A program made the position numbers and the translations under genes. The notes under the pieces are model-generated. The model worked only from the letters and a program-made list of their open reading frames with translations, was not told the DNA's origin and ran no database searches. A stretch of 64,000 nucleotides of DNA from a virus, in the IMG/VR virus record IMGVR_UViG_3300013132_000036, positions 1 to 64,000 of that record; one strand, given 5' to 3'. Positions 1-34,393 of the stretch are shown in pieces; the stretch's first letter is position 1, and every line of letters starts with the position of its first letter.

Positions 1-132
1 CCTGGTTGGTCTCCTGGTTGGTCTCCTGGTTGGTCTCCTGGTTGGTCTCCTGGTTGGTCTCCTGGTTGGTCTCCTGGTTGGTCTCCTGGTTGATCTCCTG
101 GTTGGTCTCCTGGTTGGTCTCCTGGTTGGTCT
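1..132. repeat. 12-bp tandem repeat CCTGGTTGGTCT x11 (encodes GDQP on the minus strand); continues off window
   Basis: Directly visible; one unit variant (TTGATCT). Confidence 0.95.
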
Positions 133-941
133 CCTGGATCTCCTTCTTCTCCTGGATCTCCTTCTTCTCCTGGATCTCCTTCTTCTCCTGGATCTCCTTC
201 TTCTCCTGGATCTCCTTCTTCTCCCGGATCTCCTTCTTCTCCTGGATCTCCCTCTTCTCCTGGATCTCCCTCTTCTCCTGGATCTCCTGGGTCATCTCCT
301 TTTTGTATCACCATTTCTTGGTCCGGATCTGCTAATTCTTTATCCTCATCTTCAACCTTACCTGTAGTCTCTACAGTCTTTTGTACTTTAGGATTATTAA
401 TAAGCCTTTGTAGTTCTCCAGATTCTTCGAGCGCATCATATATGTCTTCTGCTCTCATTCCTTCAAATCTTGGATCATATAGACCTTCTCTGTTACCCAT
501 TTCATCTACAGGGAATTCAAATCCAGCTTCATCTTTAAGTAATGGATTTATTGCATAGTCGCATGCTATGTTCCATCCCATAGGATCTCTGCTTCCTCTC
601 CTATCCATATGATCACCGATGCAATGTAATATCTCGTGACACAAAACTAATCTTAGAGCTGCCTCAGATTGTCTCATAACAAATTCAGGATGGAATATTA
701 TATCCCTCCCATTTGTACACATTGTTTTAGGATCAAGGTCACTAGATCCAAATATATTAACGTGGCTAAGAAGCTCAGCATAAAATCCCTGGTTTATATT
801 TAACCAAAGTATAACTCTTCTGATTTTTTTATTAACCTCATCTGGATCATATGAGGTAGATTCATTTATAAATCTAACGTAATTAGAGAAAGATGTTATT
901 ACTTTTCCCGTTTTATATTTGTTCTCGTTTAACTTTCTCAT
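3..941 (-). CDS. DUF2201-N-type HExxH metallopeptidase (MoxR partner) with acidic repeat linker; runs off the window (missing from ORF track)
   Basis: Own translation from ATG 941 (overlaps the AAA stop, ATGA): MRKLNENKYKTGKVITSFSNYVRFINES...PKTMCTNGRDIIFHPEFV...VLCHEILHC...WNIACDYAINPLL..., then GDPGEE and GDQP repeats; open to position 3. Confidence 0.88.
   Translation of the reverse strand, partial: MRKLNENKYKTGKVITSFSNYVRFINESTSYDPDEVNKKIRRVILWLNINQGFYAELLSHVNIFGSSDLDPKTMCTNGRDIIFHPEFVMRQSEAALRLVLCHEILHCIGDHMDRRGSRDPMGWNIACDYAINPLLKDEAGFEFPVDEMGNREGLYDPRFEGMRAEDIYDALEESGELQRLINNPKVQKTVETTGKVEDEDKELADPDQEMVIQKGDDPGDPGEEGDPGEEGDPGEEGDPGEEGDPGEEGDPGEEGDPGEEGDPGEEGDPGDQPGDQPGDQPGDQPGDQPGDQPGDQPGDQPGDQPGDQPGDQP
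133..285. repeat. 18-bp tandem repeat CCTGGATCTCCTTCTTCT x8 plus a partial unit (encodes GDPGEE, acidic Gly-X-Y)
   Basis: Directly visible; variants are synonymous in the minus-strand frame. Confidence 0.95.
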
Positions 942-2437
942 CCCTGTAGTCCTTTATCTTTAGCTCCCTTAGTGATAAGTAAAGCAGCTTTATGTTTTAT
1001 CTCATCCTCTGGAGTGGATGAAGACCCTCCGAACTTGAACTGTGGATATTTTGATAGTATGTCTTTGTATAGCCAGCTTAGAGGTTCTAATTCGCTATAT
1101 CTATTGAAATATTCCATCACGTTATAAAGCTTCTGTGTGTCGTATGTTCTGACTCTTTTCATTACCATTTCGATAAGTCCATAAAGTACGCTCTTTGTTG
1201 ATTGTGCTTCTGATACAATAGGAGCTGACATTGGGTTATTAATCATACTCTCCATATCTGCATCCGTAACCTTTCTTAGAATCTCTAAGTAAGCAACAAA
1301 TTTACCTGCTGCTTCTGGACCAACTTGATCATAGAAAATATCCATTATGTCCTGTCTAGAAATATCCCTCCATGAATCTACGCCTTTGTAGTTAATCTCA
1401 TCATTAAGTATTAATGCCCCATCTGTCCAAGATCTAGGGGTAGGATAGTTAAGAGATTTTTTATCTGCATCCAGATTGTGGAAATAATCAGGGTTGAATG
1501 TTAGGAAAGTAACTAACTCAGGAAGTATCTTCTCATTTTTATCTGCCCAAGAAGCATATCCCTCTATAGTAGGTACGTAATTTTTAATGGTGAATCGGTC
1601 AGCTAATGCAAAATCGAAATCTGCAACACCTTCTGCTTCTTCCGGTCTGTTACCAGCTGCTACGATTACCCATCTATCCGGTAATTTATAAGGACCTATT
1701 TCTCCTTTCTGTACGAATTGCATGATGGAGTTAAGAACTGCTTTATTAGCTCTGTTCATTTCGTCCATAAATATTATACCTCCTCTTTCATCTTTACCAT
1801 TATCAGTAGGAAGTAGTATAGGTGGATTAGATCTAGTGAATCCTTTACCTGCACTGATTAATTTTCCACCTTCAACCTGAACAGGCTCTACGTCATGTCT
1901 ACTAGGAATACCCAAGAAATCCTCGGGGTTCATGAATTGAAGGTCTAATTTCATTACAGGAACACCCAACTCATCTGCTGCTTGTCCTACTATTTCAGTT
2001 TTACCAATACCAGGAGCTCCGTAAATAAATATAGGTTTAGCTCTACCACCTCTTTCTTTACTCCTATACAATCTTATTACGTCTTGCTTTAATTGATCCG
2101 CAGAGATGTTTCTTACACTCTGATCCTCCCCAGTATATTCCAAAGGGATCCTTGCTTCTTTGAGAGGATTTACCCCCATTTCAAATTCTTGCATCTGTTT
2201 AAAGATAGATCCATTCTCAGGTAAGAATAGCATAACAGTAGGAAGGCCTTTCTTAGGTCCATAAGGAATAGGAGCTACTAATCCATCTACTATGCTCTTT
2301 AAAAATTTACCGGTCCATCCGAAAAATCTTCTAGCATAATCTTTAATAGTTGAAAGGAATCCTTCATTTATTCCTGTTGGGTTGTATGATTCATTAACGA
2401 AATCATTAAAGTTCTTTATTCTCTTAGACATCTTCAT
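938..2437 (-). CDS. MoxR-like AAA+ ATPase (paralog 1) with N-terminal capsid-targeting-like leader
   Basis: Walker A GAPGIGKT, Walker B IIFMDEMNR, sensor AAGNR, ALADRF, PTPRSW; directly upstream of a DUF2201-type peptidase. Confidence 0.9.
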   Translation of the reverse strand: MKMSKRIKNFNDFVNESYNPTGINEGFLSTIKDYARRFFGWTGKFLKSIVDGLVAPIPYGPKKGLPTVMLFLPENGSIFKQMQEFEMGVNPLKEARIPLEYTGEDQSVRNISADQLKQDVIRLYRSKERGGRAKPIFIYGAPGIGKTEIVGQAADELGVPVMKLDLQFMNPEDFLGIPSRHDVEPVQVEGGKLISAGKGFTRSNPPILLPTDNGKDERGGIIFMDEMNRANKAVLNSIMQFVQKGEIGPYKLPDRWVIVAAGNRPEEAEGVADFDFALADRFTIKNYVPTIEGYASWADKNEKILPELVTFLTFNPDYFHNLDADKKSLNYPTPRSWTDGALILNDEINYKGVDSWRDISRQDIMDIFYDQVGPEAAGKFVAYLEILRKVTDADMESMINNPMSAPIVSEAQSTKSVLYGLIEMVMKRVRTYDTQKLYNVMEYFNRYSELEPLSWLYKDILSKYPQFKFGGSSSTPEDEIKHKAALLITKGAKDKGLQG

Positions 2438-2450
2438 TTTTTAGATATGT

Positions 2451-2458
2451 TATATATC
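2451..2458 (-). promoter_or_regulatory. Putative late promoter GATATATA (AAA/peptidase operon 1)
   Basis: Motif recurs shortly upstream of many structural and tagged genes. Confidence 0.7.
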
Positions 2459-3652: not shown

Positions 3653-3653
3653 A

Positions 3654-5852: not shown

Positions 5853-5881
5853 ATTATACTAAGATACAGGATTAAAGTTTC
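5853..5881 (-). promoter_or_regulatory. Putative early/middle promoter GAAACTTT-N15-TATAAT
   Basis: Same 29-bp architecture found at six sites, mostly before replication genes. Confidence 0.7.
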
Positions 5882-7401
5882 TAATCCTCATTAAAACCGA
5901 CGGTTCTTACGTCTTTCCCAGATCCTTTTACTTGGGCTCCTCCAGTAGCATTCTGGGCAACAACTTGCTGTTGAGGATTATAAGGCAAACCAATCAGAGC
6001 AGACTTTAATACTTCATCAGGTATGTCATCTAATTGGATTAATCCATAGATGAATTTTGAGGCATTCATTGATTCTTTTTCAGCTTTAGATATAAATTCT
6101 TGCCATTCGGTATAATCAGAAAATACTTGACATCCCGCTGACCAAGGTCCTATACAAACACCCTCTCCTTTAGTGGAAGATCTGTGTATTTGCATTCCGC
6201 AGCTTTCAGTATATGTTTCTGCTGGTTTATATGTTTCGTATTTAGTAACCCCGATAGGATATCTACCGACTTTAATTTTTTCGGCTTCAACCATCATCTT
6301 ATATTTAGTTTTACCTCCTAATGTACTTTCCTGTAGCACATAAAGAGTATCTCCAGGCAGCTTAATGCCTAGACCTTTAGGATTCATAGGTTTTTTACCA
6401 TAATAAGCTAAACTACCAACTGTTGTTATTTGGTATGGATCGATTTTATCTCCTAAATCCGATGGAGGAACTGGTCCAGTAGGTCCAGATTGCTGTTGTT
6501 GAGTAGTAGATGACTTAGTATTATCTTCGCTATCCATATCAACTTTTCTACCCTTAGGCTTATCATCAACTATTCCTAGTTTTTTTCCTACCCATTTAAC
6601 TGCTTGTTTACCTTTCTCCCAAGCTCCTTTAAGTAATCCTCCGATCCCTAAGATATCCTCATAAAGAACTTCGAAATCATCCTCGCTAATTTGTCCAGAC
6701 TCTAGAAGATCTCTACTTTCAACTAAAAATTCCCTCTCCTTATTCATCTGAGCAAAATCTTCAAACGTCCAAAGTCCAGATTCAGAAATTGTTTCTAATT
6801 CCATTATTCTTTCATCTATAAATTCATATACGGAAAGAGATTCATTTTTCTTCTGATTCATAAAATTAGAAGCCTCTCCAGTAGCTCCTGTAGCTCCCGT
6901 AGCACCAGAGCTCTCCGTTCCGTCTTTTGCGTTACCTGGTATGAAATACAGAGCATCGCAGAATCTATCTTGATTTGGAGTTTCTTTCTTAGTTGCAATT
7001 CTGTTTCTTATTCCTATTATTACCGCTCTCTTCTCGTTTAGTTCGTTTATAACCCTTGTGTAATCACCAGCTTTTTTCTCTTGCAAATAATTAAGAATTA
7101 ATTTGATAGTCATTACTGAAAGAGGAGTCTTCTCTAATTTGTAGGGATCTGATATCCCACATCCTTTGTAGGGTAAAGACTCTTTTACTTCTTTAGTTTG
7201 CTCGATATAGCTATCAACCCCTCCAGATCCTCCGATGTCACCAAAAACCGATTGTACAATACCTTTTGCAATCCTTGATTTTGCTTCTCTTTCTGTTTCG
7301 GGTCTTCCTAGATTTCCAGAATCTGGAGATCCTGTGGCTCCAGTGGATCCAGTTTCTTCCTCATTTAAAAATTGGCTAAATGATAATACTTTTCTTTCCA
7401 T
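5881..7401 (-). CDS. Putative virion-packaged L,D-transpeptidase (YkuD)-like cell-wall enzyme with capsid-targeting-like leader
   Basis: C-terminal IHRS-x11-WSAGCQV (His...S-x-G-C); N-terminus RKVLSFSQFLNEE; GATG low-complexity inserts; GATATATA at 7406-7413. Confidence 0.55.
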   Translation of the reverse strand: MERKVLSFSQFLNEEETGSTGATGSPDSGNLGRPETEREAKSRIAKGIVQSVFGDIGGSGGVDSYIEQTKEVKESLPYKGCGISDPYKLEKTPLSVMTIKLILNYLQEKKAGDYTRVINELNEKRAVIIGIRNRIATKKETPNQDRFCDALYFIPGNAKDGTESSGATGATGATGEASNFMNQKKNESLSVYEFIDERIMELETISESGLWTFEDFAQMNKEREFLVESRDLLESGQISEDDFEVLYEDILGIGGLLKGAWEKGKQAVKWVGKKLGIVDDKPKGRKVDMDSEDNTKSSTTQQQQSGPTGPVPPSDLGDKIDPYQITTVGSLAYYGKKPMNPKGLGIKLPGDTLYVLQESTLGGKTKYKMMVEAEKIKVGRYPIGVTKYETYKPAETYTESCGMQIHRSSTKGEGVCIGPWSAGCQVFSDYTEWQEFISKAEKESMNASKFIYGLIQLDDIPDEVLKSALIGLPYNPQQQVVAQNATGGAQVKGSGKDVRTVGFNED

Positions 7402-7418
7402 AATGTATATATCAAAAC

Positions 7419-10934: not shown

Positions 10935-11681
10935 TTAAAAATTCTTAAGAGACTGGATGATTTTAAATCTTTCCCTAGCATTTAGGTCGTCGATGTTTTC
11001 TTTTCCTGTTTCTCTTCTAAGAAGTTTCTTAAATTTAGTAGGATTTGAAGAAGCACCTGATTGATCTGCAAATTGTCTAACATCTCTTCTGGAAGGTATT
11101 AAATCAACCACCCATGCTTTTATAGGAATATTATATTGAAGTGCCAAGTTAGCAACTCTATTCCCAGAGAATAAATAATAGCTTGCTTCCTCGGATGTTC
11201 TAGTTTCACCAAAGTTTATGAATTTTATTACAACGGGAGCAGGTAAACTTATACTTCCGCTTTTCTTTAACTCCTCGGTTGTTTTTATAAGTACATCTCC
11301 ATATGCTCTACCGTATGCTCCATTTACTATGTTATCATACTCATAGACCATGAAGTTCTGAATACTGTTAACATCAAAGCTTCCCTCAGAAACTATGGGA
11401 ATATCCTCAAAATACCCCTTTCCGAAAGGTTCGGAAATATATTTATAAAACTTGGTAGCTCTTGGTGATGTTTTACCGATATCCTTGTTTCCTATGGTTA
11501 TGTTGTGCTGATAAAACTCTAATTTTGCTTTATCATCATAATGCTCAATCTCCTTAGCTAAATCTGGTTTTGTCCAGTTTATTTTTAGGTTCTTTTTAGA
11601 ACTAGTCGACGGAGAGCTTTGTGGTGATTCTGCTCCCACATTTTCTTGCTCATTAATAAAATCTTTTAACCTTAAAATCAT
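10935..11681 (-). CDS. Hypothetical protein with capsid-targeting-like leader; degenerate ParB/Srx-like core
   Basis: MILRLKDFINEQ; LPAPVV...YYLFSGNR...IPIKAWVV resembles ParB-N; GATATATA at 11687-11694. Confidence 0.5.
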   Translation of the reverse strand: MILRLKDFINEQENVGAESPQSSPSTSSKKNLKINWTKPDLAKEIEHYDDKAKLEFYQHNITIGNKDIGKTSPRATKFYKYISEPFGKGYFEDIPIVSEGSFDVNSIQNFMVYEYDNIVNGAYGRAYGDVLIKTTEELKKSGSISLPAPVVIKFINFGETRTSEEASYYLFSGNRVANLALQYNIPIKAWVVDLIPSRRDVRQFADQSGASSNPTKFKKLLRRETGKENIDDLNARERFKIIQSLKNF

Positions 11682-13914: not shown

Positions 13915-14397
13915 TTATTTAACGTATGCCTCGTCAATGATATCCGGTGTTAACTCAATAGTGATATTCTTTCTTTTCATAGAATAAGGAACTGCTATAA
14001 TAACGCCTCTAGTCTGATCAACATCTTTAACAACAAATTCAGAATCTACGAATATGTTTCTAGAAGGCTCGTCTGCTGTTTTGCTTCTGTCACCCATATA
14101 AACGTCAGTTTCTGGATCATAGACATCTTCTTGATCTTTACTAGGATCATATCCCATTTCAGTATAAATATCTTTTAGATATTGTGGGGCATTCTTACCT
14201 TGTGTTGGTATTTCAGCTATTACTGTAATTTCAGAAAGAGTTCCATTAGCAACTTGAGTAAGAAAATCCTGAAGTTCGCCAATAAACTTATTTCTTTTTA
14301 TTGTTCTTTCTGGTTGGAAACTAGATCCCCTGTAAAGAGGAATTCCTACGTTATAAACAGACTCATTTAAAAAATCCGCAAATCTTAGAATTCTCAT
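13915..14397 (-). CDS. Hypothetical protein with capsid-targeting-like leader
   Basis: MRILRFADFLNES; GATATATA at 14415-14422. Confidence 0.7.
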   Translation of the reverse strand: MRILRFADFLNESVYNVGIPLYRGSSFQPERTIKRNKFIGELQDFLTQVANGTLSEITVIAEIPTQGKNAPQYLKDIYTEMGYDPSKDQEDVYDPETDVYMGDRSKTADEPSRNIFVDSEFVVKDVDQTRGVIIAVPYSMKRKNITIELTPDIIDEAYVK

Positions 14398-15672: not shown

Positions 15673-15701
15673 GTTATAGAATAGTTTATAGATTAAATTT
15701 C
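15673..15701 (-). promoter_or_regulatory. Putative early/middle promoter, variant GAAATTTA-N15-TATAAC
   Basis: Same 29-bp spacing, weaker sequence match. Confidence 0.45.
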
Positions 15702-16352
15702 ATTTAATTTTTTAAATATTAAGGAAGAAACTTCCTCGAGACCTTTGGCAGCCGATATTTCTAAGAAATTACCACCATTTCTCATGGATTCTATCATGGG
15801 TAATGTCTGATCGTTGTACTCTTCCATTCTTTTTTCAAAAGCTTTCTCACTTTTGTCGTCAGATCTTCCTGATGATTTTCCTCTGTTAATAATTCTTTTC
15901 TTTAACAAATCCTCAGGTCCGTTTAAAAAGAAAACATATACAAGCTTTAATTTGTTTACCCTACAGATCTCTTCAAAAATATCTCTTTGTGCAAGGTTTC
16001 TGGGGTATCCATCAAATATAAATCCCCTAGGATCATGATGCTTAGAATAATCTTTAAGATATGCTATTAGTTCTTTTCCTACTAGATCATCTGGAAGTAA
16101 TTCTCCAGTCTTCATCATTTTTTTAATGTCCTTATCATCAGATTGCCTTAATATATCTCCAGTAGAAACGTGCTTCCATCTCATACCTTTAGATATTATT
16201 TTGGCCTGTGTTCCTTTACCACATCCAGGTGGACCGGTTAAAATTATGCAGGGAATCTCTTCTAAATTTTCTTTGCCATCAATATCTCCAAATTCTTTTA
16301 CAAATTCTTTGAAGTTACTTACTTTCTTTGGATTATTTTTTTTGCTTTCCAT
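15693..16352 (-). CDS. adk: Adenylate kinase (short LID) with extra N-terminal leader
   Basis: GPPGCGKGTQ, HVSTGDILR, GELLPD, FDGYPR, GRSDD. Confidence 0.93.
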   Translation of the reverse strand: MESKKNNPKKVSNFKEFVKEFGDIDGKENLEEIPCIILTGPPGCGKGTQAKIISKGMRWKHVSTGDILRQSDDKDIKKMMKTGELLPDDLVGKELIAYLKDYSKHHDPRGFIFDGYPRNLAQRDIFEEICRVNKLKLVYVFFLNGPEDLLKKRIINRGKSSGRSDDKSEKAFEKRMEEYNDQTLPMIESMRNGGNFLEISAAKGLEEVSSLIFKKLNEI

Positions 16353-22126: not shown

Positions 22127-22432
22127 GTGAAAAAAATTCTATCTTTCAAATTATTTGAAGACGTTTATCTAAAAGACATAAATCCTTTTGATGGAGAAAG
22201 AAAATATACTCCTGGCCTCAGATTTGCCAACAGGGACGAAGCTATTAAATCAATTAAAAAGATCCAAGAAATGCTAGATCGTAAAGAAATAGAATTAAAG
22301 GATGCAATTATAGCTTCTTATATAATGTCAAAAAGAGCGGAGTTACATAAATCCCAAAAATCGGGAATCAAAGAGGGAGGACTTGTCTGGAAAGATTATC
22401 TGGAACAGCTTAAAAAGAAAGAATCAATCTAG
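22127..22432 (+). CDS. Hypothetical protein with capsid-targeting-like leader
   Basis: GTG start, KKILSFKLFED; AATATATA at 22115-22122; fills the gap between flanking genes. Confidence 0.7.
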   Translation: MKKILSFKLFEDVYLKDINPFDGERKYTPGLRFANRDEAIKSIKKIQEMLDRKEIELKDAIIASYIMSKRAELHKSQKSGIKEGGLVWKDYLEQLKKKESI

Positions 22433-23014
22433 TTATTTGTTCGATTTAAAGTAGGAAACAAATTTGTTAACTATATCCATAAAATTGTATTCGTCTGTGG
22501 TGACAGGAGTAATTGCCTTAGATTTCTTACTCCAATCATTTAAGTATTTATAGAAAACTTTAAATGAGGGAGATAACTGATCTTTCTCTTCACTCTTATT
22601 AACTTCCTTAATAGATTTAGTGAATCCCATCATAAATCGGTCCACCGCATTCTTATCAATTTTCTCAAGATCGCAGTAATCAAAGAATGAAACTAATATG
22701 TCCCACATATTATCTGGGGTAATATCAGGAAATCCCTTTTTTACCCTATCTGATCCTAGTGCAGTTGTTATTTTGCACTCACAAACGGATTTTTTATCTG
22801 CTGAATTTTCTTTGCCTGAATAAAAATCTATCCTAGCCTCTTCCTTAATGCCCTTTTTATTGTATATGATAGAGAACGTTCCGTTTTTACTAAAAACTAA
22901 ATATCCATTTTCCTCTTTCTTCTCGAATGATGATTCATTGCTTATTATTGCCCAATTAGTTGTTACCATTTGGAGCTTTTCAAAAAGTTGTTGAAATGTA
23001 AATAAATGATTCAT
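22433..23014 (-). CDS. Hypothetical protein with capsid-targeting-like leader
   Basis: MNHLFTFQQLFEK; AATATATA at 23019-23026. Confidence 0.7.
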   Translation of the reverse strand: MNHLFTFQQLFEKLQMVTTNWAIISNESSFEKKEENGYLVFSKNGTFSIIYNKKGIKEEARIDFYSGKENSADKKSVCECKITTALGSDRVKKGFPDITPDNMWDILVSFFDYCDLEKIDKNAVDRFMMGFTKSIKEVNKSEEKDQLSPSFKVFYKYLNDWSKKSKAITPVTTDEYNFMDIVNKFVSYFKSNK

Positions 23015-25020: not shown

Positions 25021-25193
25021 TAAGTTTTTTGGAATTTTGGTTTTTTCTTTATATATTCGTTCCATGTCCAAATAAATCTTCTATAGTTATTCTTAACTAT
25101 ATTAAAACCAGTATCTCCTTTAGGAATCTTTACTGGGGAAACTGGAGGTTCGTATGAACTAGTTTCTGCTGAACTTCTTTTCGTTTTACCCAT
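25020..25193 (-). CDS. 57-aa hypothetical protein (not in ORF track)
   Basis: Own translation MGKTKRSSAETSSYEPPVSPVKIPKGDTGFNIVKNNYRRFIWTWNEYIKKKPKFQKT; A-rich leader; upstream GATATATA. Confidence 0.65.
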   Translation of the reverse strand: MGKTKRSSAETSSYEPPVSPVKIPKGDTGFNIVKNNYRRFIWTWNEYIKKKPKFQKT

Positions 25194-25764: not shown

Positions 25765-26076
25765 TTATTCGTTTACGCTGGAAGCTTTTAGGATTCTTTT
25801 ACCTAGAGTAGTTAGAGAGAAATAGTTTGCTTCTTCCTCTTGGACTTTATATCTGATATATTTTTTTTGTCCTCTAACCCAATTCATGGAAGGCTTCCTT
25901 CCTGAAGCATCTTCTGGTACGCTATCTAAGAATTCCGTAAGCTCTCTTTTGGTTACTTTCTCCTTCTCTCCTATAAAGGAAAGAACTTTTATTGTTGTGG
26001 CAGATGGTTTAGCCCAAGCTATTGGAATCCTAGATTCATTTATAAATTCTTTATATGAAAGAATATTACTAATCAT
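25765..26076 (-). CDS. Winged-helix-like protein with capsid-targeting-like leader
   Basis: NILSYKEFINES; C-terminal YFSLTTLGKRIL wing signature. Confidence 0.6.
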   Translation of the reverse strand: MISNILSYKEFINESRIPIAWAKPSATTIKVLSFIGEKEKVTKRELTEFLDSVPEDASGRKPSMNWVRGQKKYIRYKVQEEEANYFSLTTLGKRILKASSVNE

Positions 26077-26605
26077 GATCCCTTCTAGTATAAATTAAAG
26101 TTTCCTCATCAGGTCCTTCTTGAACGCTCCATTTTTCATAGCTCCATTCTCCCATTAATGTTTCTACTCTGTCTTTATACTCTGAAAAATCAATATTTAG
26201 ATTCATAGTAATCTCATCATAGATTTTAGAGACCTTAGGATTATTTTGTAAATAGTCTTTTATTGCTTCACTCAGGATTCGGTAAAATCTCATGAACTCT
26301 GATCTGGTAAGATTGAAATCGTCATCCTCTCTAGATTTGTAATCAGTATCATTTACTAAATAGTCATCAAGTATTCCAATTTTAATTGGCTCCACTGATA
26401 AAACACAATAACTATTTTCTGCTTCATCTATAGAAGATCCCCTGGAAAGTTTACCTATATTAATAATAAATCCTAGATTTTCCTCCTCGCCCTCTATTTT
26501 AAAGTAGTACTTGGAAACCTTCCCGTCTTTCTTTTTAGCAAAGAAGTCTCTTCCGAAACCATCTTCTTCCATTAAAAAATTCTCAAATAATTTTATATGC
26601 TTCAT
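26069..26605 (-). CDS. Hypothetical protein with capsid-targeting-like leader
   Basis: MKHIKLFENFLMEE. Confidence 0.7.
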   Translation of the reverse strand: MKHIKLFENFLMEEDGFGRDFFAKKKDGKVSKYYFKIEGEEENLGFIINIGKLSRGSSIDEAENSYCVLSVEPIKIGILDDYLVNDTDYKSREDDDFNLTRSEFMRFYRILSEAIKDYLQNNPKVSKIYDEITMNLNIDFSEYKDRVETLMGEWSYEKWSVQEGPDEETLIYTRRDHD

Positions 26606-26881: not shown

Positions 26882-28486
26882 CTAAAATGTTATTCCTAGT
26901 TTAGCTCCCCATTTGTCTGCTAAAGGACCAAGACAAGAGTACATTGCAGGGTCTGTTTGTAATTCTGGGTGTAAATTAAAGAATGTTGCAAGAGCTGCTG
27001 ATCCTTCCTCTTCAAGATCTGTTCTCTCTAACCATTTAGCATAGTTACAAACTTCAGTAGGGGTCAGTTTAATTTCTTTACTTTTTCTAATAACTGCTCC
27101 AAATAAAGCGTGAGTGTAATCCGGTTTATTTCCTTTGTCTGCAGGGATTGGTGCTTTTGCCGGATCAGTATATGGTAAAATAAGTTCTCTAACCGGAATG
27201 TCCTTAGCAACCTTATAAAAATTTAAGAAAGATACAGCAGCATCATTACCTACGTTTTTAGAAAATTCCTTCTTTATAACATCCTCTGGGATATTAGTAA
27301 TTCCTTTTGCTTCTAAATTTCTAATTACTCTTGATAAAGAGTTAGAGGCATCAACCCAAGCCCTAGGGGTAGGGTATTTAGTTTTCTTAGTGGCAGGATC
27401 TAAATTATGGAAGAAGTCAGGCTGGAATTCTAAGAAATCTAAAAGTTCGGGTAAAACAACATTTTTATATCTGCTTCTTTCCACATAAGATCTAAATCCT
27501 TTTATGGTAGGCACGAAGTTAACTGCTTGAAATCTGTCTCTAAGTGCAGTTCCTAATTCTTTAACAGATTTATCATCCTGCTTTCTGTTACCTGCTGCTA
27601 CAATATACCATCTTTCTGGAATATTATAATTGTTTCCAATTCTTCTTGATTGTGCAAGTTTCATAAATATTTTAATAACCTCCTCTGGCATACGATTTAA
27701 CTCATCAATAAATATTATTCCACCTTTACCATTCCTACCATTATCATAAGGAAGAATATCTATGTTGATATTTGATCTTGTTACTCCCGCACCTGCGTAA
27801 TTTCTCTCTGGATCTGGCTCTTTCATAGTTACTACACTAGGTACACCAGCAAAATCAACAGGTTCAGCATTTTCTCCATCTACATTGACTAAAGAAAGCT
27901 TATGCCCATATAATTCTTTTCCTAATTCGTCACAAACCTGTGCTACTATCTGTGTTTTACCAATCCCAGGAGCTCCGTAAATAAAAATAGGCTTAACATC
28001 TAGAATTCCCCTGTACATGTCATCTAATTCGTCTTCAGTTGCCCCGGCTTTCTTAGCAGCATCCATTTCATCAGCAATTCTGAAGATCTCTCTCATGTTT
28101 GTTTTGATGTCCTCCTTTATTTCCGGTTCGGAGTAATTAGGTACGTCGTCTGAAATAGGATATTCAAGGGGAACTGCATCTTCCCATAAAAAACTTTCAC
28201 CAAGGGTCTCTGGTTTTTCAAGATTACCCATGTTATAGTATTCTGTTCCTTTATAGAAATTATTAACCTGACTTAAAATAGATTCACTCTTAGAATCGTC
28301 AAATAAAGCAACCCTCGGGGTTCCTGTTTTAGGGCCAGAAGATATCAATTTAACTAAACCCGACTTAACCGCATTGTATAGGCCTTTTGCCCATGAAGAT
28401 ATTTTCGATCCTAAATTGGATAAAAATCCCTCACTCATATATGATTCATTTACGAATTCATCGAAATTATAAATTCTTTTAGCCAT
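26882..28486 (-). CDS. MoxR-like AAA+ ATPase (paralog 2) with N-terminal capsid-targeting-like leader
   Basis: GAPGIGKT, IIFIDELNR, AAGNR, ALRDRF, PTPRAW; GATATATA at 28509-28516. Confidence 0.9.
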   Translation of the reverse strand: MAKRIYNFDEFVNESYMSEGFLSNLGSKISSWAKGLYNAVKSGLVKLISSGPKTGTPRVALFDDSKSESILSQVNNFYKGTEYYNMGNLEKPETLGESFLWEDAVPLEYPISDDVPNYSEPEIKEDIKTNMREIFRIADEMDAAKKAGATEDELDDMYRGILDVKPIFIYGAPGIGKTQIVAQVCDELGKELYGHKLSLVNVDGENAEPVDFAGVPSVVTMKEPDPERNYAGAGVTRSNINIDILPYDNGRNGKGGIIFIDELNRMPEEVIKIFMKLAQSRRIGNNYNIPERWYIVAAGNRKQDDKSVKELGTALRDRFQAVNFVPTIKGFRSYVERSRYKNVVLPELLDFLEFQPDFFHNLDPATKKTKYPTPRAWVDASNSLSRVIRNLEAKGITNIPEDVIKKEFSKNVGNDAAVSFLNFYKVAKDIPVRELILPYTDPAKAPIPADKGNKPDYTHALFGAVIRKSKEIKLTPTEVCNYAKWLERTDLEEEGSAALATFFNLHPELQTDPAMYSCLGPLADKWGAKLGITF

Positions 28487-28520
28487 TTTTATTCTATTAT
28501 TTACCTTGTATATATCTTTT

Positions 28521-29528
28521 TTATATTCTTTTTACGTTCTTGTTGGCAAGAACAATGTCTATTCTTTCACCAAAAGGTTGGGAGTTAGGATAAGGCTCAT
28601 CATTGAAGGTTAGGAATACCCAAATACATCGGTCACCATATTCAGAAATGTCATAGTCATTTTCAGAAGGAAAACCTGCCTCACCGTCAGTAAAGTATAT
28701 AAAAACTGTGGGTGTTTCACCTTCCTGATCTATCATGTTTTTTTGAACCCATTTGAATGGGGGCCAAAAATAAGTTCCTCCTCCTCCCGCTATTTTATTA
28801 TAATCCGGAAGATCTCCTGGCTCTAATATATCTGGTTCATAAACTTGTGTGTCACAATACAATATAACTGTTTTATTTGGGTTATACTCTTGAGTTATAT
28901 TCGTAACTTCTCCTAGAAATTGTTCTATCATTTCTCTTGTAATAGATCCAGAGGTATCTATTGCAACAACTACACTCTGAAAATCTTCCTTATATCTCTT
29001 ATAGCCATATTGAGCTTTTCCTGATCCCAGAAATCTTCTAGAGGGTAATGTATATTTGGATTTAGATATAGCTTGATCTATATACTTTGAAAGTTCTTCT
29101 TTCCAATCTATAACAGGTCTTTTAGTTTTTTGAATTGCTCTCTTTAGCTGAGCCGGGATATTTCCTGCATTAGTACCTGCAATTCTAGTTATATCTTCCC
29201 ATTCTTCGGCTAATGTTTCACCATTAAGTCCGCTGTCTCCTCCGAGATCCCCAAGTTCCCCAGGTCTAAGAATTTCCCCTGGATTATACCCATCCTTGAC
29301 TTTAGGTCCTCCTCCTCCTGTTTCGGTCCTTTTAAATTCAGATTCTTCTTCCTTTATTTTACCATCTTTGTCCCTCTCCGGAACTTCCCTATCTGGAACG
29401 TCATCTCCCCACTCATCTATATTTTCTGGCTTAGGTATAGGAAAATCGGGGGGAAAATCTCCGGTTCCGCCTCCGCCGCCTCCTTCTCTAATTTCTTGTA
29501 TTCTTACGCCTGTTATTTTTGCTTTCAT
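28521..29528 (-). CDS. vWA domain protein (DUF2201 C-terminal type)
   Basis: IDWKEEL, PSRR, MIDAS VVAIDTSGS, GGGGT, YFTDG. Confidence 0.88.
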   Translation of the reverse strand: MKAKITGVRIQEIREGGGGGGTGDFPPDFPIPKPENIDEWGDDVPDREVPERDKDGKIKEEESEFKRTETGGGGPKVKDGYNPGEILRPGELGDLGGDSGLNGETLAEEWEDITRIAGTNAGNIPAQLKRAIQKTKRPVIDWKEELSKYIDQAISKSKYTLPSRRFLGSGKAQYGYKRYKEDFQSVVVAIDTSGSITREMIEQFLGEVTNITQEYNPNKTVILYCDTQVYEPDILEPGDLPDYNKIAGGGGTYFWPPFKWVQKNMIDQEGETPTVFIYFTDGEAGFPSENDYDISEYGDRCIWVFLTFNDEPYPNSQPFGERIDIVLANKNVKRI

Positions 29529-29562: not shown

Positions 29563-30423
29563 TTAGAAGTCTAATTCTTTTTCTATATCATCTCCTAATA
29601 TATTTTCACCCTTAGCTTTTCTCTGTAGATATTCTTTAACCTTATTTTTCGGTATAGGATCATACTCAAGCTCACCTGATGTCTCGTCTATAGACTTAAC
29701 TATACCATAAGAATCATTATCTTTATCGTATATAATGTCACCAACTACAGGATCCTTTGGCGGTGGTGGAGGTGGTGGAGGTGTGGTCGGAGGATATCCT
29801 TCCTCAGGAACATATCCATTAGAAAGAAGCTTCTCATATATCCATTCTGCACTCCTGTTTACGAATTCATAATCATAAGGAACATGGCCACATCCAGGAT
29901 ATAATGATCCCTCTACCATTTTTCCTATCCCTCCTTTAGAAACAGGTTTAGGCTTATCGGAATTTATCGTGCTTGTATCTACGGGTGTTAACAACTGATT
30001 AAGTGCATAATCTGCTGCAACGTTCCATACACCTGCTTTAGTTTTATCCTTAGGACATCTTAAAAAGTGTACCAATGTATTGTGTAAAACCTCATGTGCA
30101 ATAACCCATATTATCTCCTCATCTGTACGACCTAGAACAAAATCTGGATCATAGTGTATACTAACACCATCAGTTGCCATTGTTTTATATTCAAGATTTC
30201 TGTTTTCTCTGATAATCAATCGAGATAACATCGATGCAAAAAATGGATATGATCCGTTTAGTAAAAATACACACGCCCTCATTTTTTTCAGAGCTGCGGG
30301 ATTGTGTGGTGTTTTGTTTCTTTCGTCTAAATAGATTGCTTCATTTAAACTGTTATACTCTGAATAACCAAATCTAGCATATTCAAAAATTGCAAAATCA
30401 CTGAAGGATAATATTCTTTTCAT
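29563..30423 (-). CDS. DUF2201-N-type HExxH metallopeptidase with capsid-targeting-like leader
   Basis: TMATDG, IAHEVLH, WNVAADYALN, SAEWIYE; poly-Pro linker; GATATATA at 30442-30449. Confidence 0.88.
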   Translation of the reverse strand: MKRILSFSDFAIFEYARFGYSEYNSLNEAIYLDERNKTPHNPAALKKMRACVFLLNGSYPFFASMLSRLIIRENRNLEYKTMATDGVSIHYDPDFVLGRTDEEIIWVIAHEVLHNTLVHFLRCPKDKTKAGVWNVAADYALNQLLTPVDTSTINSDKPKPVSKGGIGKMVEGSLYPGCGHVPYDYEFVNRSAEWIYEKLLSNGYVPEEGYPPTTPPPPPPPPKDPVVGDIIYDKDNDSYGIVKSIDETSGELEYDPIPKNKVKEYLQRKAKGENILGDDIEKELDF

Positions 30424-30440: not shown

Positions 30441-32462
30441 CTATATATCCTCTTCAGAACCGTTTATTTGTTTGGTAAATTCATTGAAAAGAACTGCTAC
30501 TGATTTAGGAACTTTACTTTTAAATTGTTGAAAATCTCCGTCTTTTATGTAAGTCCTAATATCATTATTATTTGACCATTGAGGAGTTTTATATATTTCT
30601 ATATCTCCTCCCTCTAAGTCGTATTTATTTCTTACCCATTCTCTCTGTAGAATCATGTTTTCAAAATCTCTTTCCCCTATACATACTGACGCAGGGTTAG
30701 CATATTTAACAACTGCATTTAGAGCGTCTTCTAAAAGATTGGACGGTATTATCTGATACCCTGCAAAAAGCTTATTATTCTCCGATGTTAGAGATCCTAT
30801 TGATTTTCTTATTAAATCTTCAGAGAATGGATATTTTGATCCAGGCTCACTTCCTGGATGAACCACACAAAGGAAAACAGGTAAATTATTTTCCTTCTTT
30901 AATCTGGTACACATTTTTAAATGCCCATTATTAAAAGGCTGGAATTTCCCGATTACTATATTTACTTTCTGGTTGTTCTCGTTTAATATCTTAATCTTTC
31001 TTTTCTCTTTATGTGTAGTTACTACTTTTTTAAAATCTTTAAATGAAAAAAATTCGGATGCGTCTTCGCTTTTTTTCTCCTCCTCAGTTATAACCGTAGG
31101 CGTTTCTGATTCATTAAGAGAAACAGGATCTTCAGAAGAAGATCCCTCTATTATTTCTTCCAGCTCATCTATTTCATCTTCTTCTTCGCTCATTGTTGGA
31201 TTAAATTTGCTACCTGCTTTTTTAAACCAAACAAAGCTAGGAACTCCTAAAGATTCCTCTACTAAATCTTTTTTCTTAGCGTTTATATAGCCAGCGATTT
31301 CTTCAACTAGCATGTTAAACTGTTGTATTAGACCTTCTGTGAAAAATCCATGTGGTTTTCTTTTAAGCTTCCTGAAGGAATTAAGAATCATCTGGAGAAT
31401 GTCTATATAAACTTCATCATCTTCTATAGACTTTAACACCTCTTCATCGATTATTAAATCCTTGTTTATTTCAAATCCCTCTGATTTTAAATATTCAGGT
31501 TTTTGAAAATCAGCGCCTACGTATTTTTCTCCCTCCTCATATACAAATCTCTTAAATACATTAAAAACAAAACTGATGTATCTTTCTTCCGGATCGTTTC
31601 CTTCAGCTGTGAAATTTTCTACACCAGTCTCTAATATGAAATTCATTACATCTATAAGACATAAAGAATAAACATCGCTAGGGAAGTATGAAGTCTGGGT
31701 AACTTTTCTACTTTTGTTTATCTCATGGAAAACTGGATCAACCATTTTTGCTAAAACTGTTTCCTCCTTACCATCTTCATCTTCGAATCTGAAAACAAGA
31801 GAATCTATTTCCCCCTGTAGATCCTTACCAAGGGTTGTTCTTTCTACGTTTTTGTTTAATATAGAAATTAAATAGTTACTAAAGCTAGCAGTTTTAAATT
31901 TACTTTTAAGATCCATTAAAGGAGTTGAAAGGAAATCCATTATCGCTATCTTCTGATCCCTATTAAGTTTACCTTGGAATATAATAGGGGATCTCTCTAC
32001 TTCTAGCTTATCTGCCCACTCGTCTAGCTCGTTCTTATCCTGTAAATTTTTAATAACGTCGCCGAATTCATCTCTAACAACAACGTGTGTTAAAACAAGA
32101 TGATTTTTTGGTACCCTGTCGTATTCGATCCTAACAGGTTTTTTATTGGGAAAGTAAACCATTCCAAATCTCCACCCTTTAGGAAGCTGATCAGTGATTT
32201 CAAGTGACAATGATTCTATATAAATTATAGGCTTTTCGTAATATTTCATTAATATCCTATCAACCTTAGTTATAGGGTTATCTTGATCTTTTTTATAAAA
32301 AGATATATTATCTCCAGTAAAATCCCTCTCGAAAGAAAAAGAAGGTCCATCTAAATTCTCAGTTACTGTTAAATTTTTATTGAAAAGGCTTTCAATGAAG
32401 GACTTTCCTTTTTTCTCGTATATGTCCGTTAAGTATTTTATTCCAGCCATTAGTTTAAACAA
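30441..32462 (-). CDS. Fusion: RNA-ligase-like nucleotidyltransferase fold (motif I Lys replaced) plus HIGH-family cytidylyltransferase-like domain
   Basis: TVTENLDG (cf. TEKLDG), IIFQG, DSLVFR, LAKMVD; C-terminal IGKFQPFNNGH; acidic linker. Confidence 0.65.
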   Translation of the reverse strand: MFKLMAGIKYLTDIYEKKGKSFIESLFNKNLTVTENLDGPSFSFERDFTGDNISFYKKDQDNPITKVDRILMKYYEKPIIYIESLSLEITDQLPKGWRFGMVYFPNKKPVRIEYDRVPKNHLVLTHVVVRDEFGDVIKNLQDKNELDEWADKLEVERSPIIFQGKLNRDQKIAIMDFLSTPLMDLKSKFKTASFSNYLISILNKNVERTTLGKDLQGEIDSLVFRFEDEDGKEETVLAKMVDPVFHEINKSRKVTQTSYFPSDVYSLCLIDVMNFILETGVENFTAEGNDPEERYISFVFNVFKRFVYEEGEKYVGADFQKPEYLKSEGFEINKDLIIDEEVLKSIEDDEVYIDILQMILNSFRKLKRKPHGFFTEGLIQQFNMLVEEIAGYINAKKKDLVEESLGVPSFVWFKKAGSKFNPTMSEEEDEIDELEEIIEGSSSEDPVSLNESETPTVITEEEKKSEDASEFFSFKDFKKVVTTHKEKRKIKILNENNQKVNIVIGKFQPFNNGHLKMCTRLKKENNLPVFLCVVHPGSEPGSKYPFSEDLIRKSIGSLTSENNKLFAGYQIIPSNLLEDALNAVVKYANPASVCIGERDFENMILQREWVRNKYDLEGGDIEIYKTPQWSNNNDIRTYIKDGDFQQFKSKVPKSVAVLFNEFTKQINGSEEDI

Positions 32463-32893: not shown

Positions 32894-32899
32894 TCTTTA

Positions 32900-33781
32900 T
32901 TATTCGTCTTCGTCTTCTTCGTCCTCGTCGTATTCTTCTTCGTCCTCGTCGTCTTCGATTTCGTCTTCCACTTCATCATCATCTCCTTGAGGAATAGTAG
33001 CAGAATACTCGTCATCTTCATCCTCATCCTCATCTTCATCCTCATCTTCCTCGTAGCTGCCTTCAGTTTCTTCCGGATGACCGTTATGCTCTTCTCCATA
33101 GGTATATCCAGAATTTGGATCTTCGTGTTCTTCCTCCTCTCCCATTTCTTCTTCCTCTTCTATCTCGTTCCAAACAGGTTGCATTTTACAAGTTAGATAT
33201 TTGCAATAAACATCTCCAGTTTTTCTGTCTTCGATTGTTACCATTCTAGGCCCGTTTATCTCGTCTAGTTCTATACTTGCAGCAAACATTTTAGACTCTT
33301 CTAAATTAGCAAAAGGTCCGAAAGTGTAAGCTCCTAGATCAGGAGTAGTTTTTACTTTAAGTGGAGAGGACATCATATCTTTACTGTATCTAATCATTTC
33401 TCCCCCTTTATCAAAATAAAAATCGTCACACATAGTTACGAAATGGTAGTTAGGATCCCCACCATCGCCTACCATCTGCTTAGCCATTTCCATGGTCCTA
33501 GACTCATTCATTTTCTTTTTGGCGAAATCAAATTTAGATCCAGTTGCTTTAGGTTTTATACCCTTCTCTTTTTTATAATCACTCCAAGCTTTAGATAAGC
33601 CATCCATGTACTTTTCTTGAGCTTTTCTATCACCTTGGAATTTTTTATCAAAAGGTCCAGAAACACCATGCTTCTTGTGGTACTTTTTAGAGAACTCAAG
33701 GTACATATTTCTTTCATTGACTACCTGACTTTCTTTTAGTTCTTGCTTCTTTTTTTCTACTGCTGAAGAGAATTTTTTCAT
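32900..33781 (-). CDS. Hypothetical head-associated protein with long D/E-rich tail
   Basis: Several xxE sites (LKES, VNE, MNES); C-terminal ~90 aa almost purely acidic. Confidence 0.6.
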   Translation of the reverse strand: MKKFSSAVEKKKQELKESQVVNERNMYLEFSKKYHKKHGVSGPFDKKFQGDRKAQEKYMDGLSKAWSDYKKEKGIKPKATGSKFDFAKKKMNESRTMEMAKQMVGDGGDPNYHFVTMCDDFYFDKGGEMIRYSKDMMSSPLKVKTTPDLGAYTFGPFANLEESKMFAASIELDEINGPRMVTIEDRKTGDVYCKYLTCKMQPVWNEIEEEEEMGEEEEHEDPNSGYTYGEEHNGHPEETEGSYEEDEDEDEDEDEDDEYSATIPQGDDDEVEDEIEDDEDEEEYDEDEEDEDE

Positions 33782-33784
33782 TTT

Positions 33785-34393
33785 TTATACATTATTTGTT
33801 TGGAATATAGGCTGGGCTGGGTTTGCCTGATGTTGATAATAGAGATTCACTCTATTTCTAGCTATATCATCTAATACAGGAACTTGTCCCATTACTACGT
33901 CACCTCTATTATAAAGATCCCCTATGTGATCTGCTAATTGATCCTCCGTTTTTATACTAGGAAGTTCGTTCTGTGCAAAGTCCTCATTTGTATGTCTCAT
34001 GAATTCTATATCTACTTTCTCATCACTAGGAGATTTTTTAGTGAATTCATATTTAGTAGGACCAAATACTCTTTTTAATACATTAGGTACAACAGATAAA
34101 GCGCCAAAAAGAATTTCAAATCCTGTATCAGGTCCCCCGTGGGTTCTCATTGATCTATTTTGTCTTACTTGTTGCTTTCCTATTTCTGCCGCTCTGTTTA
34201 TTCTATTTTCCATTTTTTGGAAAAAGTCACGAGTTTTCTGTAGAACAGTAGGATTGCTGCCTAATTCATAATGATTTTTAGCTCTATCTTCATAAGTAGA
34301 AGCATTGTTTCCTAAATGCCTCCTAAAGAAAAGATCTTCACTAGACTCATTAATTTGGCAAAAATCCTTGAAGTTTTTAATTTTATACATCAA
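33785..34393 (-). CDS. Hypothetical protein with capsid-targeting-like leader
   Basis: YKIKNFKDFCQINES; GATATATA at 34412-34419. Confidence 0.7.
   Translation of the reverse strand: MMYKIKNFKDFCQINESSEDLFFRRHLGNNASTYEDRAKNHYELGSNPTVLQKTRDFFQKMENRINRAAEIGKQQVRQNRSMRTHGGPDTGFEILFGALSVVPNVLKRVFGPTKYEFTKKSPSDEKVDIEFMRHTNEDFAQNELPSIKTEDQLADHIGDLYNRGDVVMGQVPVLDDIARNRVNLYYQHQANPAQPIFQTNNV

Follow-up and report, generated by a model that had tools for sequence, protein, structure and literature searches.

A T4-like candidate capsid-targeting leader at the N-termini of diverse proteins in an uncultured lake jumbo phage

Why should an adenylate kinase, two MoxR-type ATPases and several proteins without assigned function begin with nearly the same few residues? 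The question is raised by the window studied here, a 64,000-nt stretch of an 84.5-kb fragment from an uncultured lake-water jumbo phage (CheckV 31%) with kinship to Bacteroidota phages and probably a Bacteroidota lake bacterium as host. A first-pass annotation had proposed that about 15 otherwise unrelated proteins share a leader that loads them into the phage head. Comparing the phage's own genome (75 ORFs) with two related genomes, G001 (365 ORFs) and G004 (414 ORFs), we judge it fairly probable, from sequence and by analogy, that the shared peptide is a protease-removed capsid-targeting leader of the T4 type. Given its close likeness to the T4 head-loading tag, it is likely that the virion contains the tagged enzymes.

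Leader-bearing genes in the window

All N-termini listed at first pass are present in the sequence at the gene starts given for them. After grading with a position matrix trained on N-terminal instances from the three genomes, the original tally of about 15 was reduced to 11 credible ORFs (seven strong and four moderate) that open with [IV]-[KL]-x-[FY]-x-x-F-[ILV]-N-E, two doubtful ones and two that were rejected. The credible ORFs all lie on the minus strand; in the leaders below, an arrow follows the terminal Glu.

The seven strong ORFs have matrix scores of 20.6 to 29.5. Two encode MoxR-type AAA+ ATPases: one of 499 aa at 938..2437 (Pfam AAA_5 38.1 bits, matrix 29.5), with leader MKMSKRIKNFNDFVNE↓S at nt 2390-2437 and an exact GATATATA box at 2451-2458, 21 nt upstream, and one of 534 aa at 26882..28486 (AAA_5 41.3 bits, matrix 25.7), with MAKRIYNFDEFVNE↓S at nt 28445-28486 and the box at 28509-28516. 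The phage encodes a full DnaJ as well as two MoxR systems. The other five are proteins without assigned function. The largest, 506 aa at 5881..7401 (matrix 26.3), has no family in Pfam and matches phrog_3000 (unknown function); it begins MERKVLSFSQFLNE↓E (nt 7360-7401), with the box at 7406-7413, 12 nt upstream. The 248-aa protein at 10935..11681 (matrix 24.8) begins MILRLKDFINE↓Q (nt 11649-11681, box at 11687-11694), and the 160-aa protein at 13915..14397 (matrix 25.5) begins MRILRFADFLNE↓S (nt 14362-14397, box at 14415-14422). The remaining two are neighbors: 103 aa at 25765..26076 (matrix 26.2; MISNILSYKEFINE↓S, nt 26035-26076) and 178 aa at 26069..26605 (matrix 20.6; MKHIKLFENFLME↓E, nt 26567-26605).

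Four ORFs were graded moderate. A DUF2201_N putative metallopeptidase of 286 aa at 29563..30423 (PF13203 60.1 bits, matrix 10.3) carries MKRILSFSDFAIFE↓Y and then, at residue 28, SLNE↓A (nt 30340-30423), with the box at 30442-30449. The adenylate kinase, 219 aa at 15693..16352 (Pfam ADK 111 bits, matrix 7.8), has a 37-residue N-terminal extension that bears a weak leader, VSNFKEFVKE↓F (nt 16293-16352). In the 202-aa protein without assigned function at 33785..34393 (matrix 7.2, scored without gaps), the leader MYKIKNFKDFCQINE↓S contains a two-residue insertion (nt 34346-34393, box at 34412-34419). The last, 3..941, is incomplete, extending past the contig end, and combines a DUF2201_N putative metallopeptidase (PF13203 89.3 bits) with a collagen-like tail (Collagen 35.2 bits); it was graded moderate despite a matrix score of -0.5 since its core, YVRFINE↓S (coding nt 861-941), matches the strict pattern. 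Of the 11 candidate cargo proteins in the window, six have no assigned function; the others are the adenylate kinase, the two MoxR AAA+ ATPases and the two putative DUF2201_N metallopeptidases. The tagged ATPase at 26882..28486 and the tagged metallopeptidase at 29563..30423 flank a VWA-like DUF2201 protein (28521..29528, minus strand; PF09967 67 bits) with no leader motif in its N-terminus, MKAKITGV...

The doubtful ORFs match the first motif half only: 22127..22432 (plus strand, 101 aa, matrix -1.1), which starts (V)KKILSFKLFED and is preceded by GAATATATA, and 22433..23014 (minus strand, 193 aa, matrix -4.7), which starts MNHLFTFQQLFEK. The ORFs at 26608-26880 and 32900-33781, already flagged as weaker at first pass, were rejected as leader carriers. 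Describing the tagged proteins as otherwise unrelated was close to correct: once the first 28 residues are trimmed off, the only exceptions at E < 1e-3 are two paralogue pairs, the ORFs starting at 938 and 26882 and those starting at 3 and 29563.

N-terminal restriction, conservation and the late box

At a matrix score of at least 10, 8 of 75 ORFs in the phage's own genome, 27 of 365 in G001 and 19 of 414 in G004 are tagged, a census that is not an independent enrichment test because the training used N-terminal instances. The untrained pattern [FY]xx[FY][ILV]NE gave five matches at 2,175 N-terminal positions versus none at 24,902 interior positions in the 75 ORFs of the own genome, a set that does not include ORF 3-941 (Fisher p = 3.3e-6); the corresponding counts were nine versus one in G001 (p = 2e-7) and six versus none in G004 (p = 6e-6). 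Below the 10 best N-termini in the window's genome the next score is 3.2, confirming the earlier observation that replication and tail proteins lack the leader. The leader Glu has a median position of residue 13 (n = 54, range 10-29), which falls inside the published range of 10-20 residues for T4 capsid-targeting sequences (CTSs) (PMC5694885).

Orthologues retain the leader. Those in G001 score 19.4 for 10935..11681, 23.9 for 25765..26076 and 27.1 for 26069..26605, and the G001 orthologue of 33785..34393 begins MKNIQDYKRFCLNE↓A; the leader of the G004 adenylate kinase is strong (MGQIKYFEQFLNE↓R, score 26.0). Not every leader-like start in the relatives ends in N-E; MKHIKLFESYHNG is one that does not. 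The proteins that bear the leader carry it as an extra segment: the ADK domain of the adenylate kinase begins only at residue 38, and in the 13915..14397 family L4, F6, F9 and E12 are invariant across 13 orthologues (40-93% identity), while AlphaFold2 places residues 1-16 of this protein at pLDDT below 50, with the first structural element at residue 19.

An exact GATATATA box lies 12-30 nt upstream of 7 of the 11 credible tagged genes, bearing out the claim that most of them follow this motif, and the proposed enrichment by promoter class was found in all three genomes. Within 60 nt upstream, the box precedes 6/8 tagged versus 6/67 untagged genes in the own genome (p = 1e-4), 18/27 versus 27/338 in G001 (p = 3e-12) and 10/19 versus 34/395 in G004 (p = 3e-6). 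It is common to tagged genes and head and tail genes, and is also found upstream of the protease-scaffold gene described below and of a gene with tail-fiber PHROG matches. Judged from sequence, tagged genes and those for head and tail appear to be transcribed together, from promoters of the GATATATA type. No box was found upstream of adk at 15693..16352, which is located in a ribonucleotide-reductase operon; this fits a cytoplasmic metabolic role and counts against packaging.

A box no more than 12-30 nt ahead of the start codon leaves room for nothing but a very short 5' untranslated region, and the motif could in principle be a by-product of nucleotide or translational constraint at late-mRNA starts, such as A/T-rich codons or a ribosome-loading signal, with no functional peptide at all. 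A/T-only codons do exist for K, I, N, F and Y, and a late-expressed ribosomal protein, bS21, has been reported in related phages (PMC9723584). We disfavor this explanation as very improbable: for the conserved F, N and E, synonymous codons are used as in the genome at large (TTT:TTC 31:15, AAT:AAC 21:11, GAA:GAG 24:17), residue order and spacing are fixed beyond mere composition, the motif is missing from the head and tail genes that this box precedes, and the G004 adk has its strong leader without a box. The leader is conserved at the protein level.

Likeness to the T4 tag and a protease in relatives

In T4, a leader of 10-20 residues is found on unrelated proteins (PMC3012670; PMC12373910), namely IPI, IPII, IPIII and Alt, and is removed by gp21, a distribution like that seen here. 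The IPII and IPIII N-terminus is MKTYQEFIAE↓A, whose residues 4 and 7 function in targeting, and 8 and 10 in processing, with gp21 cleaving after L/I-x-E (PMC9026906). These four residues correspond here to F/Y(-6), F(-3), [ILV](-2) and E(0), giving the same register, with aromatics at -6 and -3 and a terminal [ILV]-x-E. The comparison with IPII and IPIII drawn at first pass held better than expected: a matrix built from this clade only ranked them second and third of 50,705 positions in T4 (282 ORFs), and first and second among T4 N-termini. The candidate leader here, in a phage with a probable Bacteroidota host, differs in its longer consensus and near-fixed Asn before the Glu, in the far larger number of tagged genes, and in that many of these encode sizeable enzymes (up to 534 aa), whereas the T4 proteins are small and basic.

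No gp21-type protease, capsid or scaffold gene was found on this contig, so the link from these genes to the leader runs through relatives at 35-93% identity; the protease anticipated elsewhere is present there. The family PF03420 scores over cut-off in four of five related IMG/VR records and four of five public relatives, placing a gp21-family protease within the lineage, and the GELDHP and ISSRA stretches of G001 and G004 align with GELNHP and VSSRG of T4 gp21. In both genomes the protease domain is part of an ORF of 676-677 aa, fused to a scaffold-like region of Y[LIV]AE repeats (14 in G001, spaced exactly 14 residues apart, and 13 in G004), with an [IL]NE↓S site directly after the protease domain. 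This ORF shows the top [ILV]NE enrichment in each genome (nine sites, 9.7-fold, p = 6e-7 among 365 ORFs in G001; eight sites, 9.9-fold, p = 2e-6 among 414 in G004). The repeats and [ILV]NE sites of this C-terminal region are what one would expect, by analogy, of a core protein broken down by proteolysis, like the T4 scaffold protein gp22 and the core proteins gp67 and gp68, which gp21 degrades at multiple L/I-x-E sites (PMC9026906); those have genes of their own, whereas here protease and repeat region form one ORF. In the adjoining capsid protein (PF07068), ...SLNE↓SAGAYNT is conserved near residue 45 and, we infer, may be a cut site, [ILV]-x-E being short and the T4 gp23 alignment poor there. 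Leaders occur on genes surrounding the protease and capsid genes.

The giant phages phiKZ, 201phi2-1 and SPN3US carry dozens of head proteins, and their diverged gp21-like proteases (gp175, gp245) cut many proteins after Glu at a three-residue motif, with prohead targeting inferred for the propeptides (PMC5694885; PMC9026906). Their motif is A/S/G-x-E, and the propeptides mostly exceed 100 residues without a common leader sequence (PMC5694885); here, in contrast, the leader is short and common, the motif is [ILV]-N-E, and the relatives' protease is fused to the 14-residue-repeat region.

Under a T4-type mechanism, the two aromatic residues would let a tagged protein dock on the scaffold core as the prohead assembles, the gp21-family protease would cut the [ILV]-N-E end after Glu, and the mature protein would be retained inside the head, possibly for delivery to the host. 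A protease-type site at the end of the leader would also suit a zymogen-type propeptide or degradation tag, removed or recognized by a protease, that keeps late enzymes inactive or short-lived and plays no role in capsid loading. The metallopeptidase, CHAP and SLT proteins are hydrolases potentially harmful to the producing cell, and in the model the leader is not within the part that folds with confidence. We consider this improbable, as 10-15 residues with pLDDT below 50 are unlikely to block such diverse active sites, there is no evident reason for Adk or the small unknown-function proteins to be kept latent, and T4 gp21 is a prohead core component, with maturation occurring there (PMC9026906; PMC5694885).

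Tagged cargo in related phages

The relatives' tagged proteins include a Tad3 anti-Thoeris domain, a T4-type RNA ligase, CHAP, SLT and PG_binding_1, a cargo that suits a delivery role. In G004, CHAP (twice), SLT, PG_binding_1 and OmpA scored over cut-off, with Hydrolase_2 just under, so that 6 of the 10 tagged proteins scanned act on the cell wall. A "cell-wall enzyme" and a "wHTH" protein had been named as cargo of the window itself, where we found no family evidence for either. The wider proposal of packaged enzymes gains from the T4-tag likeness, the relatives' protease and the common box, and loses by adk without its box and by a cargo nearer 11 ORFs. Moreover, AAA+ proteins, Adk and ATP-grasp proteins are ATP-dependent and hence unusual capsid cargo, which we count against the capsid-targeting reading. 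The strict pattern was not found in MaF61, PTm1 or pT24 and its four matches in PAU were discounted as junk frames, making these cultured relatives unusable as a check; LR756500 has one plausible match.

The cell-wall-acting proteins of G004 could instead indicate a lysis or envelope role. The peptide might then be a docking signal for another late-infection assembly or hub (for instance the MoxR/VWA machines or the DnaJ that the phage encodes, a site on the membrane, or a pathway by which cell-wall enzymes are exported or act in lysis), with a convergent resemblance to the T4 tag. That the phage encodes the chaperone and MoxR systems, that Adk lacks the late box, and that hydrophobics at -9, -6, -3 and -2 are spaced like an amphipathic helix face (as read from the logo) would agree with such docking, which we regard as unlikely though the least improbable of the alternatives. 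The leader has no hydrophobic core typical of a secretion signal, and AAA+, Adk, RimK-type ATP-grasp, RNA ligase and Tad3-domain proteins, which would be of no use outside the cytoplasm, are tagged too. Docking would also fail to account for the terminal [ILV]-N-E, for its accumulation in the protease-scaffold ORF and for the match to T4 IPII and IPIII, and the MoxR ATPases bear the leader themselves.

A leader shared by otherwise unrelated proteins

By training a position matrix on N-terminal instances from this record's contig (G000) and from two related IMG/VR records, G001 (248 kb, 85% complete) and G004 (290 kb, 100% complete), we obtained a leader with the consensus [IV]-[KL]-x-[FY]-x-x-F-[ILV]-N-E, followed mostly by S, A, N or Q. 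With the final Glu numbered 0, the matrix training instances have F or Y at -6 (41 of 46) and at -3 (44 of 46), I, L or V at -2 (39 of 46) and E at 0 (40 of 46); the median residue of the leader Glu is 13 (n = 54). The N-terminal sequences quoted in the first-pass annotation were all found, and eleven G000 ORFs qualify as leader-bearing, or 'tagged', out of the roughly 15 that it had listed. Seven ORFs score 20.6-29.5 and three 7.2-10.3, while ORF 3-941 matches the strict core despite a low gapless matrix score. The listed ORFs at 22127 and 22433 carry half the motif, and ORFs 26608-26880 and 32900-33781 were rejected because their N-termini do not fit it when scored by the matrix. The N-E end is missing from some leader-like starts.

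Since the matrix was itself trained on N-termini, enrichment was assessed with the untrained pattern [FY]xx[FY][ILV]NE, comparing N-terminal with interior positions by Fisher test. The pattern occurs at 5 of 2,175 N-terminal and 0 of 24,902 interior positions in G000 (p = 3e-6), at 9 of 10,585 and 1 of 65,669 in G001 (p = 2e-7), and at 6 of 12,006 and 0 of 77,654 in G004 (p = 6e-6). The description of these proteins as otherwise unrelated largely held after the leader was trimmed, which left only two paralogue pairs among 15 candidates, one of AAA+ ATPases and one of DUF2201_N proteins. Where F, N and E are conserved, the choice among synonymous codons matches genome-wide usage; selection therefore acts on the peptide and not on the DNA, and the idea that the leader is a translational by-product is hardly credible.

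Orthologues in G001 retain the leader, including low-scoring cases visible by eye (MNKKVLSFNKFNE/Q and MKNIQDYKRFCLNE/A, the slash marking the supposed cut after Glu). The leader of the adenylate kinase (15693-16352) is weak in G000, and the G004 orthologue begins MGQIKYFEQFLNE/R and scores 26.0. In a tagged 160-aa protein (ORF 13915-14397), L4, F6, F9 and E12 are invariant across 13 orthologues of 40-93% identity, and an AlphaFold2 model built on the 13-orthologue alignment gives residues 1-16 a pLDDT below 50, with the first structural element at residue 19. The adenylate kinase matches PF00406 (ADK) over residues 38-191 (111 bits, cut-off 26.8). The leader is thus an add-on placed before complete domains. 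An extension of this kind might be a propeptide for latency or degradation, which we consider very unlikely.

Tagged genes and their upstream box

The IMG/VR record is linear, 84,523 bp long and 31% complete by CheckV estimate, and the window covers its bases 1-64000, with a G+C content of about 34% and nearly all genes on the minus strand. G000 holds genes for replication and nucleotide metabolism, a block of baseplate/tail genes and several large genes without known function. For a 727-aa protein of the large-gene block (55106-57289), the best public relatives, at 25-35% identity, are found in LR756500 (an uncultured 462-kb phage), Flavobacterium phage MaF61, Lak phages, Sphingomonas phage PAU and Tenacibaculum phages PTm1 and pT24, and the sequencing runs containing G000 DNA are lake-water metagenomes; G000 therefore represents part of an uncultured jumbo phage genome, and the host is probably one of the Bacteroidota. 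None of these runs is recorded as RNA, and the single run labelled RNA-Seq was judged to be probably DNA. A nucleotide search of public phages with a tail gene gave no match. The window also encodes a full-length phage DnaJ (7757-8794, minus strand), in which the J domain, the zinc-finger centre and the C-terminal domain each score above the Pfam cut-off.

The candidate cargo in the window comprises two MoxR-type AAA+ ATPases, two DUF2201_N putative metallopeptidases, the adenylate kinase and six proteins without a family. Matches above Pfam cut-offs were obtained for AAA_5 (38.1 bits at 938-2437 and 41.3 bits at 26882-28486), DUF2201_N (89.3 bits at 3-941 and 60.1 bits at 29563-30423) and DUF2201 (67 bits at 28521-29528), the last in an untagged VWA-like protein located between one ATPase/DUF2201_N pair. 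An AAA_5-type ATPase domain adjoins DUF2201 VWA-like and DUF2201_N metallopeptidase-like domains, the arrangement of a MoxR AAA+ ATPase with a VWA/DUF2201 partner. A plus-strand ORF of WLVS repeats (6-335) mirrors the collagen-like/PT repeats in the tail of DUF2201_N gene 3-941 on the minus strand and is probably not a gene. Lying among the tagged genes on the minus strand, without the leader, are a UvdE UV-endonuclease (10000-10920), a family-2 glycosyltransferase (14423-15655) and an HhH-GPD base-excision protein (23028-23411).

PHROGs scans of the tagged family-less proteins and of G001 head-module neighbours yielded almost nothing useful. Among the tagged proteins of the relatives, 10 of 19 were scanned in G004 and 10 of 27 in G001. 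Seven of the ten from G004 gave matches above cut-offs (CHAP twice, OmpA-like, RimK-type ATP-grasp, GDPD, SLT and PG_binding_1), and a Hydrolase_2 match in a tagged G004 protein fell just below its cut-off. The G001 set includes a T4-type RNA ligase, a Tad3 (Thoeris inhibitor) domain and an OmpA match below cut-off. The ligase is a 372-aa protein at 684-1802 of the G001 stretch L037, and the Tad3 (Type I Thoeris inhibitor) domain (75.2 bits) belongs to a 261-aa protein at 151569-152354 of G001 (L037:11569-12354). Cell-wall hydrolases, RNA repair enzymes and anti-defence proteins would suit delivery with the DNA; ATP-dependent machines would be less expected as delivered cargo. Some of the candidate cargo enzymes have, to our knowledge, never been reported as capsid cargo.

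The short box GATATATA occurs 15 times in G000, on both strands and nearly always 12-30 nt upstream of a start codon. Of the 11 credible tagged genes, 7 have the box upstream and the adenylate kinase gene lacks it; the box is also found upstream of 39929-42262, 57307-58224 and 43264-45924 (with tail-fiber PHROG matches). The proposed association of the leader with a promoter class was borne out in all three genomes, the box being commoner within 60 nt upstream of tagged than of untagged genes in G000 (6/8 versus 6/67, p = 1e-4), G001 (18/27 versus 27/338, p = 3e-12) and G004 (10/19 versus 34/395, p = 3e-6). In G001 and G004 it also stands upstream of a putative protease-scaffold gene and of large structural-region genes, and we read it as a predicted late-type promoter.

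The sequence GATATATATC reads as GATATATA on both strands and occurs at 9967-9976 and 58242-58251 of the window; the second copy lies between the divergent genes 57307-58224 (minus) and 58336-59010 (plus) and could serve both. Behind another GATATATA box, a 57-aa ORF (25020-25193, minus strand) shares its C-terminal sequence with the 93-aa orthologue in G001 and therefore looks complete rather than split by an endonuclease; its neighbour (23906-25071, minus strand) is a DUF559/Vsr-like endonuclease gene.

A probable protease-scaffold gene and a capsid gene in relatives

The gp21-like prohead protease that the first-pass annotation proposed to locate did not appear on G000, a 31%-complete contig on which Peptidase_S77 (the Pfam family of T4 gp21) had no match and capsid, portal and protease genes were not found, but the family is present in relatives. 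Peptidase_S77 scores above cut-off in four of five related IMG/VR records and in four of five public relatives, the exception being MaF61. In G001 and G004, the protease domain has stretches around the GELxHP (His) and SSR (Ser) motifs that align with T4 gp21, and it forms the N-terminal end of a 676-677-aa ORF (G001 18267-20300, stretches L026/L031; G004 43277-45307, stretches L028/L045). Beyond this domain the ORF continues with Y[LIV]AE repeats (14 in G001, at a spacing of exactly 14 residues, and 13 in G004) and ends in a tail rich in [ILV]NE[SAG].

Sites of the form [ILV]NE are rare, at 107 and 110 per whole proteome in G001 and G004, and in both the protease ORF tops the proteome for enrichment (9 sites, 9.7-fold, p = 6e-7 in G001; 8 sites, 9.9-fold, p = 2e-6 in G004). 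One site lies just C-terminal of the protease domain in both genomes, a position that would fit the C-terminal self-cleavage described for gp21-type enzymes in passages of PMC5694885 and PMC9026906. These features are as would be expected of a scaffold fused to its protease and chopped up when the head matures. Adjoining it is a Gp23-family capsid gene with a conserved ...SLNE/SAGAYNT around residue 45, and several genes neighbouring the protease and capsid genes start with the leader. An alignment of this capsid protein with T4 gp23 failed to bring SLNE/S onto the T4 cleavage site; it is unreliable in that region. A complex prediction pairing 250 aa of G001 protease domain (3-row alignment) with the first 45 residues of the 160-aa tagged protein (13 rows) gave no answer, at a score of 0.01, and counts neither for nor against an interaction.

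Resemblance to the T4 capsid-targeting sequence

In the T4 RefSeq record, the internal proteins IPII and IPIII begin MKTYQEFIAE/A and IPI begins MKTFKEF.... According to a review (PMC9026906), gp21 cuts after L/I-x-E, and in the T4 capsid-targeting sequence (CTS) residues 4 and 7 are important for targeting and 8 and 10 for processing; these four residues correspond exactly to positions -6, -3, -2 and 0 of the lake-phage leader. As a blind check, a matrix trained on the lake-phage clade alone was applied to 282 T4 ORFs (50,705 positions), where IPII and IPIII ranked second and third overall, behind an interior site in UvsW, and first and second among N-termini. It is also reported that diverse T-even internal proteins have only a CTS in common (parts of PMC3012670 and PMC12373910) and that head proteins of giant phages are processed after Glu (part of PMC5694885).

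From this likeness in look and organisation to the T4 system, we infer that a tagged protein would be packaged in the head via its leader, which a gp21-type prohead protease would cut off, and would then be injected into the host with the DNA. The leader is probably a T4-type capsid-targeting leader removed by such a protease; it is unlikely that it has another docking or export role. Delivery of the tagged proteins into the host is quite possible, without being the outcome we would favour, and only tentatively do we propose that about one gene in ten of the clade is head-loaded by one leader, protease-trimmed and delivered with the DNA. In that case complete MoxR-VWA-metallopeptidase machines would be delivered, together with nucleotide enzymes, RNA-repair enzymes, cell-wall hydrolases and anti-defence proteins such as the Tad3-like Thoeris inhibitor. 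The phage's whole injected 'effectorome' would then be readable from sequence alone, and the leader could be used to tag foreign proteins for packaging into Bacteroidota phages.

Of all the weapons of a phage, virion proteins that are injected act earliest in the cell, and they are not easily recognised by their sequence. T-even internal proteins found via their conserved leader proved to be anti-restriction factors, according to part of PMC12373910, and if uncultured jumbo phages of Bacteroidota share a clear leader across their clade, it would flag dozens of candidates for delivery in each genome. Such a leader also suggests that loading cargo in the T4 manner may be far more ancient and widespread than one would gather from the three internal proteins of T4. 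In a limited search of open-access literature we found no description of such a leader in Bacteroidota jumbo phages; new here are the longer and distinct consensus in a distant clade of lake phages, the number of genes that carry it, the enzymatic nature of their products and the putative protease-scaffold fusion. A strict DNA leader pattern gave no matches in MaF61, PTm1 and pT24, four in junk frames in PAU, and two in LR756500 versus six for a reversed control; none of the cultured relatives searched carries the leader.

The third-ranking T4 N-terminus by the clade matrix is that of gp61.1 (MKTFKEFIKE/D), which could be an unrecognised CTS-bearing protein; gene 61.1 (NC_000866 18966-19130) has a product of 54 aa. 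In G004, at least eight paralogues (234424-239281 and 273950-276793), all beginning MKNLKTY..(L/M)FES, form a family grouped close to one end of the genome, which recalls the variable loci for internal proteins in T-even phages.
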